Of a DNA stretch of 64,000 bases, positions 5,306 to 31,185 are shown piece by piece; position 1 is the first letter of the stretch; the number at the start of each line of letters is the position of its first letter. Location: assembly GCF_003018255.1 (NCBI RefSeq), contig NZ_CP027440.1; one strand, written 5' to 3'. Below the pieces are notes generated by a model. It worked only from the letters and a program-made list of their open reading frames with translations, did not search any database and was not told the origin of the DNA. Source of the stretch: Escherichia coli (GTDB lineage Bacteria > Pseudomonadota > Gammaproteobacteria > Enterobacterales > Enterobacteriaceae). The translations under genes were made by a program, and so were the position numbers.

Positions 5306-5770
5306 ATGACTGATTACGCGATAAGCAAGAAAAGCAAGCGATCGCTTTGGATCCCGATTCTGGTATTCATTACCCTCGCGGCCTGTGCCAGCGCAGGTTA
5401 CAGCTACTGGCATTCGCATCAGGTTGCCGCTGAAGACAAAGCGCAGCAACGCGTCGTGCCCTCCCCGGTCTTCTATGCGCTGGATACCTTTACGGTCAAT
5501 CTGGGCGATGCGGATCGCGTACTTTATATCGGCATAACCCTGCGACTCAAAGATGAAGCTACCCGCTCGCGGCTGAGTGAGTATTTGCCGGAAGTCCGTA
5601 GCCGTTTGCTGTTACTGTTTTCGCGTCAGGATGCTGCCGTACTGGCGACAGAAGAAGGTAAGAAAAACCTGATTGCCGAGATTAAAACCACACTTTCCAC
5701 CCCGCTTGTTGCCGGGCAACCGAAACAGGATGTCACCGACGTGCTGTATACCGCTTTTATTCTGCGATAA
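5306..5770 (+). CDS. fliL: Flagellar basal-body protein FliL (154 aa)
   Basis: N-terminal transmembrane segment; first gene of the fliL operon. Confidence 0.88.
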
Positions 5771-5774
5771 CGAC

Positions 5775-6779
5775 ATGGGCGATAGTATTCTTTCTCAAGC
5801 TGAAATTGATGCGCTGTTGAATGGTGACAGCGAAGTCAAAGACGAACCGACAGCCAGTGTTAGCGGCGAAAGTGACATTCGTCCGTACGATCCGAATACC
5901 CAACGACGGGTTGTGCGCGAACGTTTGCAGGCGCTGGAAATCATTAATGAGCGCTTTGCCCGCCATTTTCGTATGGGGCTGTTCAACCTGCTGCGCCGTA
6001 GCCCGGACATTACCGTCGGGGCCATCCGCATTCAGCCGTACCATGAATTTGCCCGCAACTTGCCGGTGCCGACCAACCTGAACCTTATCCACCTTAAACC
6101 GCTGCGCGGCACAGGGCTGGTGGTGTTCTCACCGAGTCTGGTGTTTATCGCCGTGGATAACCTGTTTGGCGGCGATGGACGCTTCCCGACCAAAGTGGAA
6201 GGTCGCGAGTTTACCCATACAGAACAGCGCGTCATCAACCGCATGTTAAAGCTGGCGCTTGAAGGCTATAGCGACGCCTGGAAGGCGATTAATCCGCTGG
6301 AAGTTGAGTACGTACGTTCGGAAATGCAGGTGAAATTTACCAATATCACCACCTCACCGAACGACATCGTGGTTAACACGCCGTTCCATGTGGAGATTGG
6401 CAACCTGACCGGCGAATTTAATATCTGTCTGCCATTCAGCATGATCGAGCCGCTACGGGAATTGTTGGTTAACCCGCCGCTGGAAAACTCGCGTAATGAA
6501 GATCAGAACTGGCGCGATAACCTGGTGCGCCAGGTGCAGCATTCACAGCTGGAGCTGGTCGCCAACTTTGCCGATATATCGCTACGCCTGTCGCAGATTT
6601 TAAAACTGAAACCCGGTGACGTCCTGCCGATAGAAAAACCCGACCGCATCATCGCCCATGTTGACGGTGTCCCGGTGCTGACCAGTCAGTACGGCACCCT
6701 CAACGGTCAGTATGCGTTACGGATAGAACATTTGATTAACCCGATTTTAAATTCTCTGAACGAGGAACAGCCCAAATGA
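5775..6779 (+). CDS. fliM: Flagellar motor switch protein FliM (334 aa)
   Basis: ORF 5673..6779; start placed at MGDSILSQAEIDALL, which gives 334 aa. Confidence 0.9.
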   Translation: MGDSILSQAEIDALLNGDSEVKDEPTASVSGESDIRPYDPNTQRRVVRERLQALEIINERFARHFRMGLFNLLRRSPDITVGAIRIQPYHEFARNLPVPTNLNLIHLKPLRGTGLVVFSPSLVFIAVDNLFGGDGRFPTKVEGREFTHTEQRVINRMLKLALEGYSDAWKAINPLEVEYVRSEMQVKFTNITTSPNDIVVNTPFHVEIGNLTGEFNICLPFSMIEPLRELLVNPPLENSRNEDQNWRDNLVRQVQHSQLELVANFADISLRLSQILKLKPGDVLPIEKPDRIIAHVDGVPVLTSQYGTLNGQYALRIEHLINPILNSLNEEQPK

Positions 6780-27533: not shown

Positions 27534-28106
27534 TCAGGGGGATTCATTGATCTTATTTGCCGGAAATTTTCTATAAATGGTAGAAACGCCTACATCAAAA
27601 ATCAGTGCAATACGCTGTCTTGATTCTCCGGCCTCGAGTAAACGCCCAATCTGTGCCCACTGTTCGGTGGTCAACTTAGGACGGCGTCCACCTACTCTGC
27701 CTTTGGCACGAGCTGCAGCCAGCCCTGCCCTGGTACGTTCAACTATCAGTTCGCGTTCCATTTCAGCCAGGGCACCCATGACATGAAAAAAGAAACGGCC
27801 CATTGGGGTACTGGTATCAATACTGTCAGTCAGGCTTCTGAAATTCACACCACGCTGGCGCAACTCTTCTATCAGCGTAACAAGATGCCGCATACTGCGC
27901 CCCAACCTGTCCAGCTTCCAGACAACCAGCGTGTCTCCTGCCGATAGTGTCCTGAGTAGTTTTTTCAGCCCCGGTCTGTCGGACTTAGTGCCACTGATTT
28001 TGTCCTCAAAAATCCGCTCACATCCCGCGCAGTTCAGTGCATTACGTTGCAAATCGGTGTTCTGGTCATTTGTTGACACGCGTACATAGCCAATAAGCAT
28101 GATCAT
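27534..28106 (-). CDS. Serine-recombinase DNA invertase (Hin/Gin/Pin family)
   Basis: N-terminal GYVRVSTNDQ catalytic-serine motif and C-terminal HTH; abuts the invertible tail-fibre segment. Confidence 0.9.
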   Translation of the reverse strand: MIMLIGYVRVSTNDQNTDLQRNALNCAGCERIFEDKISGTKSDRPGLKKLLRTLSAGDTLVVWKLDRLGRSMRHLVTLIEELRQRGVNFRSLTDSIDTSTPMGRFFFHVMGALAEMERELIVERTRAGLAAARAKGRVGGRRPKLTTEQWAQIGRLLEAGESRQRIALIFDVGVSTIYRKFPANKINESP

Positions 28107-28127: not shown

Positions 28128-28664
28128 ATGATGCCAGTTAGCTGTTACCTCTGCATTTTCTTAAACGTTGGTTTGGGAGAAGGTTCAGCATTACCTGTTG
28201 GTGCGCCTGTTCCGTGGCCTTCAGAGACACCTCCAACAGGCTGGCTGAAATGCAACGGGGCGGCTTTTTCTGCTGAAGAATACCCGGAACTGGCAAAGGC
28301 TTACCCGACAAATAAATTGCCTGATTTACGAGGTGAATTTATTCGTGGCTGGGATGATGAACGTGGTGTGGATAGTGGGCGAACTCTGCTTTCAGCGCAA
28401 GGAGATGCTATTCGAAACATTACTGGCGGTTTTGGTCAGTTGCGCGTAAACAGCGAAATTAATGCAATTGTCGATGTTCAAAGTGTGAGTGGGGCTTTTT
28501 ACGGAGGTACCTCAGTCCGGAATAACATCAATGTGTCTATGACATACGCTAATGACCGAAAAATCCGACAAGATGTTCACTTCTCGGCGGCAAATGTTGT
28601 TCCAACAGCAAATGAAAATCGTCCACGTAACATCGCCTTTAATTATATTGTGAGGGCCGCATGA
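28128..28664 (+). CDS. Alternative tail-fibre C-terminal module (silent in this orientation; fused to H after inversion)
   Basis: No independent start is needed; its frame passes through the crossover site coding FLNVGLGEGS, matching LTYLGLGEAA in H. Confidence 0.65.
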   Translation: MMPVSCYLCIFLNVGLGEGSALPVGAPVPWPSETPPTGWLKCNGAAFSAEEYPELAKAYPTNKLPDLRGEFIRGWDDERGVDSGRTLLSAQGDAIRNITGGFGQLRVNSEINAIVDVQSVSGAFYGGTSVRNNINVSMTYANDRKIRQDVHFSAANVVPTANENRPRNIAFNYIVRAA

Positions 28665-29265
28665 TGAATAAAGCTGTATTAAATAGCAAACTCATTGCCA
28701 TAAAAGCGGGAGACATTATCATTTATAATTATGATGGTGAAACGCGGGAATATATTTCTACATCAACTGAATATCTCGCTGTCGGCGTCGGTATCCGGCA
28801 TGTTCTTGTTTGGATGCACCAGGTACACATAAAGCTGGTTATGCAATTTGTCGTTCTGTAGATTTAAACTCATGGGAATATGTGCCAGACCATCGCGGTG
28901 AAGTTGTCTATAACACCGAAACGGGAGAATCAAAAGAAATCACAGCTCCGGGTGATTACCCTGAAAATACAACCACTATCGCCCCATTAACGCCATACGA
29001 TAAATGGGATGGCGAGAAATGGGTGACGGATACCGAGGCACAGCATAGCGCCGCAGTAGATGCAGCGGAAGCACAGCGCCAGTCGCTGATTGATACTGCA
29101 ATGGCTTCCATCAGTCTGATTCAACTGAAATTGCATGCCGGACGTAAACTGACGCAGGCAGAAACAACCCGGCTTAACGCTGTGCTGGATTACATTGACA
29201 CGGTGACGGCAACAGATACCAGCACCGCGCCGGATGTCATCTGGCCTGAACTACCGGAGGCGTAG
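28661..29265 (+). pseudogene. Tail-fibre assembly (chaperone) gene paired with the alternative fibre module; split over two frames (28661..28861 and 28810..29265)
   Basis: C-terminal part ends ...VIWPELPEA like the G paralogue ...IEWPTPPVVQAR; the N-terminal 66 aa is in a different frame. Confidence 0.5.
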
Positions 29266-29680
29266 GCCATTCAATATCTGGAGCACTGGAGGTATCAACC
29301 AGTTCCAGTGCGTCCAGATAATCCAGCCATAAATTATATTGTTCCAGTTCGTCACCTTTCAGACGACCAATAGCAGCTTTGCCAGGCCACTGATGGGTGT
29401 TGATGTAGGTATTGGCTTCTGAAACCAAAGATATTTTTTTCATTTCAGCCATCAACACCTCATCCTCTTTTGAAGGCGGTGGGGAATTAATCCATATTGG
29501 CCGTCCTGAACTGTCAGCGCCAATTTCTTTCCCTTCTGGATGCAGCCCAAGAAATTGCTCATATCTTTCTCTGGTAATTTCAATAACATCATCAGGAAGC
29601 GTTCCCGCATCCTCATATTCTGGAAACAATTCTTGCAGATAAAAACTTTTACTTCCGGGTGAAAAGAATACTGAGTTCAT
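29237..29680 (-). CDS. G: Tail-fibre assembly protein (P2 gpG-like) for the currently expressed fibre
   Basis: 147 aa, directly after H. Confidence 0.85.
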   Translation of the reverse strand: MNSVFFSPGSKSFYLQELFPEYEDAGTLPDDVIEITRERYEQFLGLHPEGKEIGADSSGRPIWINSPPPSKEDEVLMAEMKKISLVSEANTYINTHQWPGKAAIGRLKGDELEQYNLWLDYLDALELVDTSSAPDIEWPTPPVVQAR

Positions 29681-29682
29681 TC

Positions 29683-31185
29683 TTACCGTCCAATGATTAA
29701 GGCTGAGACGCTGGTATCTGAAGGAAAGGCTGCATTCAGTGGTTTGTCGACTTTGAATACAATCGTATTATTCCCCCTGACAGCGGCAAAAGAACAAACC
29801 GCAGTCGCGTATGAACCTGTAATATTACTGGATACACCACCATAAGCTGTTGTTGATACCAGAGGGATAACGCCCAGCACCTTATTAGGAAATACAAAGG
29901 GCAATGTGGCTGTGGCAATATAAGACTTATTAGAACCTGTGATGGAATAAGCATTATCAGTCATTCCATTCATCGCCACTGGGCCGCTTATACTTACAGT
30001 AACCATCTGAATGATTAGCCCGTCAGGTTGACGAATCACAAAATTTCCATTGCCACCAGTAACCGTCCAGAAAGACATATCAGGGATTTGGTTTTCCCCG
30101 TTGCCCACATTCCGTTTTGCCGCTTCTCCCAAACCAAGGTATGTGAGAAGACCAGCTACATCCTTTCCACTCAAATTGGTAAGCGTATTGTCCAGCGGTT
30201 GTTTACCTGCCAGCGCATTAAGCATTGTCGTGGCAAAGTTCGGATCATTCCCCAGTGCCGCCGCCAGTTCGTTCAGTGTATCCAGTGCAGCAGGTGCAGA
30301 ACCCACCATTCCTGCAATCGCCGATTTCACAAAAGCCGTAGTGGCAATCTGTGTATTGTTGACCGACTGCGCCGCCGTGGGGGCTGTTGGCGTTCCGGTG
30401 AGTGCCGGACTCGACAACGGTGCTTTTAGTGCCAGCGCATTGTTAATGGTGGTACTGAAATTCGGATCATTGTTAATGGCTGCGGCTATTTCTTTCAGCG
30501 TGTCCAGCGTGGCTGGCGCACCATTAATAAGGGCCGTCAGTGCCGCCTGTACAAACGCAGTGGTCGCAACCTGCGTGGTATTATTCCCCGCCGCTGGCGT
30601 TGGCGCTTTGGGGGTTCCGGTAAATGTCGGGCTGGCTTTTGGCGCGTACTGTGAATGCGGGTCCGGTGCGGCAAGATGTTTTGCCATCTGATCATCCGCG
30701 TACACCTTCAGCTCCAGTGCCTTGTCATCCACATACTTGCGGGTTGCCAGCACTACAGCAGGGTCGATTTTCAGGGTGATATTGTCCGTGCTGCTGGTAA
30801 TCAGCACCATGCGCACGGTCTGAGTGCGCCCGCTACCTTCAGCCAGTTGCGGCTTATAGCTTTCCGGGCAGTTGCCCACGGCAATCAATGCCCCGGACTC
30901 ATCAAACAAGCCCACTTCACGTATCCACCAACCGCCCTCGTTTTCAGGGATCACCTGTTCGGCAATAATCTGGCTGCTGTTCTGCGGGTCGATATAAAGC
31001 ATATTCAGCGCAGCCCGGCGTTTCTCATTTACCAGTGCCGTCTGCTTTGCGTCCGGCGTTGGCAATACTCCACCGCCATCGCCCACCGCCATATGGGTAA
31101 TTTTTAGCGGCACACCGAGCGCGGCGGCGCTGGCAAGTTTCGCCGCGCCAATATCCGTCAGCAGGGTATAAAATTTTGTGCTCAT
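29683..31185 (-). CDS. H: Tail fibre protein (P2 gpH-like, 500 aa); N-terminal ~349 aa constant, C-terminal part inside the invertible segment
   Basis: Conserved N-terminus MSTKFYTLLTDIGAAKLA...; internal ~73-aa tandem repeat; crossover site within the ORF. Confidence 0.9.
   Translation of the reverse strand: MSTKFYTLLTDIGAAKLASAAALGVPLKITHMAVGDGGGVLPTPDAKQTALVNEKRRAALNMLYIDPQNSSQIIAEQVIPENEGGWWIREVGLFDESGALIAVGNCPESYKPQLAEGSGRTQTVRMVLITSSTDNITLKIDPAVVLATRKYVDDKALELKVYADDQMAKHLAAPDPHSQYAPKASPTFTGTPKAPTPAAGNNTTQVATTAFVQAALTALINGAPATLDTLKEIAAAINNDPNFSTTINNALALKAPLSSPALTGTPTAPTAAQSVNNTQIATTAFVKSAIAGMVGSAPAALDTLNELAAALGNDPNFATTMLNALAGKQPLDNTLTNLSGKDVAGLLTYLGLGEAAKRNVGNGENQIPDMSFWTVTGGNGNFVIRQPDGLIIQMVTVSISGPVAMNGMTDNAYSITGSNKSYIATATLPFVFPNKVLGVIPLVSTTAYGGVSSNITGSYATAVCSFAAVRGNNTIVFKVDKPLNAAFPSDTSVSALIIGR

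Follow-up and report, generated by a model that had tools for sequence, protein, structure and literature searches.

The tail fibre protein gpH of phage P2 (NP_046775, 669 aa) carries an N-terminal domain of the PF12571 family, and its gene follows that of gpI. Both features are shared by the tail fibre gene H analysed here, which is located in a 64,000-nt stretch of Escherichia coli DNA, in the following called the window. P2 gpH contains one copy (aa 256-329) of a module that is present twice in H of the window; of these two, copy 2 is the closest to the P2 module, with 59 of 74 residues identical. In place of copy 1, two copies of a different repeat (...SSATNSTSETLAATPKAVK... and ...QLSSATNSTSETLAATPKAVK...) are visible in the sequence of P2 H at aa 170-245. 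Different repeat types can fill the same shaft position in related fibres, as seen from this comparison of P2 H with window H. P2 furthermore differs from the window in having neither an invertase nor an invertible tip.

The gpS fibres of phages P1 and P7 resemble H in the repeat itself. P7 gpS contains two modules in tandem (aa 257-404), which are 72% identical at the nucleotide level to window positions 30645-30191 in a single piece and are likewise located in the constant part (Sc) of the gene, 150 nt before the annotated Cin crossover in cixR. The copy number also varies in gpS, with three copies in the P1-like phage phi456. In contrast, P1/P7 and the window have different N-terminal parts, baseplate contexts and virion types, and P7 copy 1 has a head of the copy-2 type and hence another internal mosaic. 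The fibres of pro483, Fels-2, SopEPhi, SEN8, RE2010 and ENT90 share with window H the N-terminal domain, the linker and a YLGLGE crossover motif, whereas one hybrid module is found in place of two; an invertase is present in pro483 as in the window.

Gene H and the adjoining inversion system

DNA searches assign the window to an E. coli P2-like prophage to which phages 500465-1 and Cartapus are close; an 801-nt fibre query was 99.9% identical to the chromosome of strain EC100. Gene H and its parts are the following.

29683-31185, minus strand: tail fibre gene H of the P2-like prophage, 500 aa (from the open reading frame, PF12571, homology to P2 gpH and the flanking tail genes)
30736-31185, minus strand: N-terminal baseplate-attachment domain of H, aa 1-150 (PF12571)
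30412-30633, minus strand: module copy 1, aa 185-258, 'internal' type ending ...NNALALKAPLS (self-comparison and BLASTP; module HMM 138.6 bits on aa 185-258)
30190-30411, minus strand: module copy 2, aa 259-332, 'terminal' type ending ...NALAGKQPLD (self-comparison, BLASTP and module HMM)
30150-30189, minus strand: linker from the array to the crossover, aa 333-345 (NTLTNLSGKDVAG..., read from the sequence)
30123-30149, no strand assigned: inversion crossover site within H, aa 346-355 (...LTYLGLGEA), a 27-nt inverted repeat, 81% complementary to 28156-28182
29683-30122, minus strand: variable tip currently fused to the constant part (weak match to PF21882 Gp53-like_C, E 0.0017, below the curated cut-off)

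H is a tail fibre gene of the P2 gpH type. The PF12571 (Phage_tail_fib) profile of Pfam is matched over positions 1-150 of 150 (E 4.5e-65, 218.6 bits at a cut-off of 23), and BLASTP aligns H with P2 gpH at 50% identity across 381 aa (E 6e-91). The open reading frames flanking H are homologues of P2 gpI, J, W and V and of the tail sheath protein, with the domains Tail_P2_I, Baseplate_J, GPW_gp25, Phage_base_V and sheath on the adjoining frames and Caudo_TAP downstream, so that H occupies its position in the P2 tail cluster (V-W-J-I-H-chaperone ... sheath). Downstream of H the following features were found.

29237-29680, minus strand: tail fibre assembly chaperone for the currently expressed tip (PF02413 Caudo_TAP, E 5.2e-28)
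28661-29265, plus strand: chaperone gene for the alternative tip, split into two open reading frames in different frames (66 aa and 151 aa; PF02413 on the 3' frame)
28128-28664, plus strand: alternative fibre tip with a Collar domain (PF07484, E 3.4e-16)
28156-28182, no strand assigned: second crossover site, bounding the invertible segment on its other side (the same 27-nt inverted repeat)
27534-28106, minus strand: serine DNA invertase of the Hin/Gin/Cin/Pin type (PF00239 Resolvase, E 2.3e-53, and PF02796 HTH_7, E 1.5e-15)

The two crossover sites form the sole long inverted repeat in the region. As in the Gin, Cin, Pin and Min systems, a serine invertase adjoins a segment with inverted crossover sites inside a fibre open reading frame, two opposed tips and two chaperone genes. 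Judged by this gene content, with invertase domains and inverted crossover sites that flank opposed tips and chaperones, the window is predicted to hold an invertible fibre-tip system. In contrast to the segments of Gin, Cin, Pin and Min, the repeat of the window is located outside the invertible segment and is also present in prophages without an invertase. Seventeen residues (NTLTNLSGKDVAGLLTY) separate the end of copy 2 (aa 332) from the LGLGE motif at the crossover, and the layout is the same in P7, in agreement with the position immediately upstream of the crossover that the earlier note had given for the array. Conservation of the linker that follows the array extends to Fels-2 and pro483.

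After inversion, the constant part is predicted to be joined to ...GLGEGSALPVGAPVPWP... (Collar tip, read from ...GLGEGSALPVG), giving a fusion of 514 aa. The nearest protein with a Collar tip (P0028) has a different tip and is identical to the predicted fusion at 438 of 514 positions. The chaperone gene of the alternative tip is split by a 1-nt deletion near position 28794 (GTCGGTA-TCCGGC as compared to GTCGGTATTCCGGC), which was called against an intact homologue of 200 aa (positions 5737-6339 of prophage L002, 91% nucleotide identity). The alternative orientation may thus yield a fibre without a chaperone, or the deletion may be a sequencing error.

A tandem repeat with a period of 74 residues

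In a comparison of H with itself, a single outstanding diagonal was obtained at an offset of 74 aa, with a score of 82 in a window of 20 aa and of 28 for the runner-up. When the two halves delimited in the earlier note were aligned by BLASTP, 44 of 72 residues were identical without a gap (E 2e-28), with the register shifted by one residue. Together with the offset of the diagonal, this shift sets the period to 74 rather than 73 aa. In the correct register copies 1 and 2 are identical at 45 residues and align without a gap across all 74. The Smith-Waterman score of copy 1 against copy 2 is 232, as compared to 35.9 +/- 6.8 with a maximum of 67 for 2000 shuffles (z = 28.9). The array in H is a genuine tandem repeat with a period of 74 aa or 222 nt. 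The earlier note had described a tandem repeat of about 73 aa at positions 30196-30633 within the constant part of H. The repeat itself and its start are borne out, and the motif string quoted there, running from SPxTGTPxAP to NALAxK, is found in both copies; the period has to be corrected by one residue and the end by six bases, as copy 2 extends to position 30190. A similarity too weak for a formal alignment, which had been named as the result that would speak against the repeat, is not what the alignments yielded.

At the DNA level the two copies are 62% identical, with 66%, 81% and 39% identity at the first, second and third codon positions, respectively. The same codon is used for 19 of the 45 conserved residues, and no run of identical bases exceeds 12 nt (AATGCGCTGGCA), the next longest being AATGATCCGAA with 11 nt and ACCGGAAC with 8 nt. 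Synonymous sites between the copies look saturated, which together with the low DNA identity argues for an old duplication. On the evidence of these substitution patterns, the array appears to be an old duplication whose similarity has been kept by selection at the protein level, and not a recent DNA repeat.

Taken together, we consider it likely that the array of H goes back to an ancient duplication, in tandem and in frame, of a shaft module of 74 aa, that the number of units sets the length of the fibre, and that this number is changed by rare unequal recombination or slippage. The modules lie between the baseplate-attachment domain and the exchangeable receptor-binding tip, and each copy would most likely contribute one fixed segment of a trimeric shaft, so that fibre length would vary in quantised steps. 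As the unit measures 222 nt, any in-register misalignment between copies would stay in frame. Whole units would be gained or lost by unequal recombination at short identical stretches or by slippage at a unit boundary. Since the copies share only 62% of their bases, such events would be rare and the two-copy array stable.

An origin of the array outside H has to be weighed against a duplication within the gene, namely that mosaic recombination, as is typical of fibre genes, introduced either two modules that had already diverged or the two-copy block in its entirety. The apparent saturation of synonymous sites would be compatible with such an import, as would the presence of the same two-copy block, at 72% nucleotide identity, in the constant part of the unrelated P1/P7 gpS. 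In addition, the tail of copy 2 and the linker are common to other fibre genes. Of the constant part, only the final ~100-190 nt (copy 2 tail, linker and crossover; window 30100-30219) are 80-92% identical at the nucleotide level to other E. coli fibre genes, annotated as 'gp53-like domain-containing protein' or 'prophage tail fiber N-terminal domain-containing protein', and this stretch may be a mosaic junction for tip exchange. A junction of this kind fits the classical view of horizontal exchange among the fibre genes of P2, P1, Mu and lambda, reportedly described by Haggard-Ljungquist, Halling and Calendar in 1992 and by Sandmeier in 1994. The exact and gapless spacing of 74 aa, which also dominates in arrays elsewhere, points however to a duplication at some stage, and an import would alter the place and time of this duplication but not the nature of the repeat. 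We regard an import as possible, albeit rather doubtful.

The module as a unit of the fibre shaft

The module consists of an N-terminal sub-motif, SPxFTGxPxAPT...N.TQ[IV]ATTAFV, and a C-terminal sub-motif, AP..LDTL.E[IL]AAA..NDPNF.TT..NAL..K.P. On the repeat region, Pfam reported no fibre-repeat family such as PF03406 (Phage_fiber_2) even at E <= 10, and no NCBIfam model was reported, whereas the module matches more than 33 PHROG families, most of which bear a tail fibre or tail protein annotation. A profile of four modules was then compared with 1.84 billion representative proteins, of which 41,131 matched at E <= 1e-3 and 15,271 at E <= 1e-10. Among the best 150 of these 41,131 proteins, full-length copies most often follow one another at exactly 74 aa (41 cases). 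Nine tandem copies at this spacing are present in one protein of 1039 aa (P0122), and the N-terminal third (SPxFTGxPxAPT...ATTAFV) is also found by itself, with up to 22 copies per array. With a profile built from modules of different fibres, window copies 1 and 2 are matched over profile positions 1-74 at 124 and 132 bits, and the same cross-fibre profile is matched by P2, P7, Fels-2 and pro483.

Searches against the sequences of solved structures in the PDB returned no chain matching the whole unit of 74 aa and only matches to its separate halves. The LDTLNELAAALGNDPNFATT (C-terminal) half has sequence matches to 9D93 'tail collar fibers gp4' and 6V8I 'Fiber Upper gp68', and the SPxFTG half matches the long tail fibre of phiTE (9CUY/9MJN; PMC11972413) and the fibre of cyanophage A4 (9K09; PMC12002296). 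That the halves match different solved fibres, and no chain the whole, argues for the unit being a composite of two older fibre motifs, which now appear to move as one block. Modules that precede another module end in ...ALKAPL[SA] (window 30412-30432) and the last module before the linker in ...AGKQP[LK]D (window 30190-30210). These endings hold in the window, in the three-copy genes and in P2, P7, phi456, Fels-2 and pro483, which suggests distinct 'internal' and 'terminal' variants of the module.

Given where it lies, between attachment domain and tip, and its homology to fibre proteins, the module probably serves as a spacer of the shaft. AF2 models of the two-module segment, either as a monomer (alignment of 16 sequences, pLDDT 47.5) or as a pseudo-trimer of three copies joined by GGGGS linkers (pLDDT 27.5), were too poor for a fold search. 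At this low confidence they hint at three short helices per unit following a non-helical SPxFTGxPxAPT stretch. Literature searches returned no paper describing this repeat or variation of its copy number. The repeat in H is an ordinary structural repeat of an already known kind and as such not new. A more far-reaching reading is that the unit is a discrete, unannotated family of shaft domains acting as a quantised length ruler, with internal and terminal variants marking the position in the array and a copy number that selection would have adjusted to the depth of capsule or LPS through which the tip has to pass. This we consider unlikely.

Copy number and hybrid modules in relatives

Relatives of H contain one, two or three copies, in exact steps of 74 aa, as seen from the comparison of repeat number proposed in the earlier note; the counts of one- and three-copy forms rest on top-ranked lists. 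Two copies are present in 108 of the 120 nearest protein clusters. At least 80% of the 801-nt region is carried by 919 of 5,426 complete E. coli genomes, and every inspected row had two copies. One-copy relatives were identified from match spans in a phage collection, as a synthetic one-copy hybrid protein proved uninformative as a query: two-copy proteins match it twice and outscore one-copy proteins. A single copy is present in H of P2 (copy-2-like), pro483 and Fels-2, and one copy is inferred for SopEPhi, SEN8, RE2010 and ENT90, where the match spans are ~222 nt shorter than the query. Three copies were found, apart from phi456 gpS, in six clusters of P2-like prophages (P0001-P0005 and P0011) among the 120 nearest. 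When a three-copy DNA query was compared with complete E. coli genomes, the best 60 all had two copies, each matching in two pieces that span ~612 nt. Thus, judged by these 60, three-copy forms are rare in complete E. coli genomes. In P0006-P0013 (543 aa), whose constant part is identical, a third, diverged module (aa 361-434, 40 of 74 residues identical) opens the variable tip just past YLRIGE at the crossover position; modules thus occur within exchangeable tips as well.

If copy 2 of one molecule recombined out of register with copy 1 of another, a middle copy with a copy-2 head and a copy-1 tail would arise between intact copies 1 and 2; the reciprocal product would be a lone module whose head is of the copy-1 and whose tail is of the copy-2 type. 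The outer copies of the three-copy genes are the counterparts of window copies 1 and 2, and the middle copy is a hybrid. In the first of them (L001, CP182004.1), wherever copies 1 and 3 of the gene differ, the middle copy follows copy 3 throughout its initial 139 nt; it then changes over cleanly to the copy-1 type inside CTGGAYACRCTGAA (LDTL). In the second (L002) the switch is located near GCNTTTGT (AFV), with some divergence later. The middle copy of the third (L003) is identical to copy 1 at 220 of 222 positions, and AGTCCG is the sole sequence shared at the junction, which would fit slippage or microhomology better than homologous exchange. pro483 is of the copy-1 type until the 12-nt identical run AATGCGCTGGCA and of the copy-2 type beyond, so that its hybrid consists of a copy-1 body and the last 7 aa of copy 2; it looks like the reciprocal deletion product. 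In the Fels-2 protein the first ~20 aa are of the copy-1 type and the remainder of the copy-2 type, with a mixed pattern at the DNA level.

The different junctions point to at least four independent copy-number events. The direction of change, from two to three copies or from three to two, is inferred by parsimony from the hybrid copies. That a repeat of this kind lets the fibre change its length by recombination, as had been proposed from the window alone, gains support from the steps of 74 aa and the hybrid junction copies in relatives. L002 and L003 have no invertase, which argues for a change of copy number that is independent of the inversion system. Downstream of H, both prophages have one chaperone gene followed by the sheath gene, with no opposed tip, and their H genes retain the YLGLGE crossover motif. 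Both prophages appear to descend from an invertible form and to have become fixed.

The existence of one-, two- and three-copy forms could also be taken to mean that the array is a contingency locus whose copy number changes at high frequency within a population. The longest run that is identical between the copies is however 12 nt, the two-copy form was found in all inspected rows of about 920 genomes, and the three-copy forms amount to six small clusters among the 120 nearest, which makes such a locus very improbable. The array is located 40 nt from the crossover site, and this proximity would be in line with a role at the DNA level in inversion, as an enhancer or as secondary crossover sites of the invertase. 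We rejected this role as highly improbable, as conservation is at the protein level (81% at second as compared to 39% at third codon positions) and the same array is present in L002 and L003 without an invertase; moreover, no inverted repeat connects the array with the invertible segment save one 16-nt match of 81% (I10), of a kind that often arises by chance. A similarity arising merely as a by-product of composition, in a region that is indeed rich in A, T, P and N, was rejected as next to impossible in view of the compositionally adjusted BLASTP E value, the shuffle test and the gapless alignment over 74 aa.

A role of the repeat as a hotspot of host-range variation, as had been suggested in the earlier note, is not supported. 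More than 100 protein clusters share a constant part that is 100% identical, both copies included, and that is joined after the YLGLGE motif to at least 18 unrelated tip groups, one of them the tip of window H. Thus, the variation relevant for host range lies beyond the crossover, in the diverse tips, whereas the array is conserved, with two copies in 108 of the 120 nearest clusters and in every inspected E. coli row and a DNA identity between the copies of 62%. The stretch of copy 2 tail and linker that is common to other fibre genes is the one observation in the opposite direction.

Overall, the significance of the repeat is modest and the current view of phage biology is unchanged. Hundreds of genomes, as well as named phages, carry the same repeat sequence, and a very common fibre module is without a curated family model, which is a gap in annotation. 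If the ruler reading were true, the copy number, for which one to nine have been seen, would have an influence of its own on host range, apart from that of the tip. The H locus provides a clean natural example of a fibre gene that changes its length in frame, with products of gain and of loss in sequenced phages. For the engineering of fibres of the P2 or R-pyocin type, the module boundaries (SP...K.PL[SD]) could be of use as sites at which units are added or removed, as could the conserved linker directly before the point of tip exchange.
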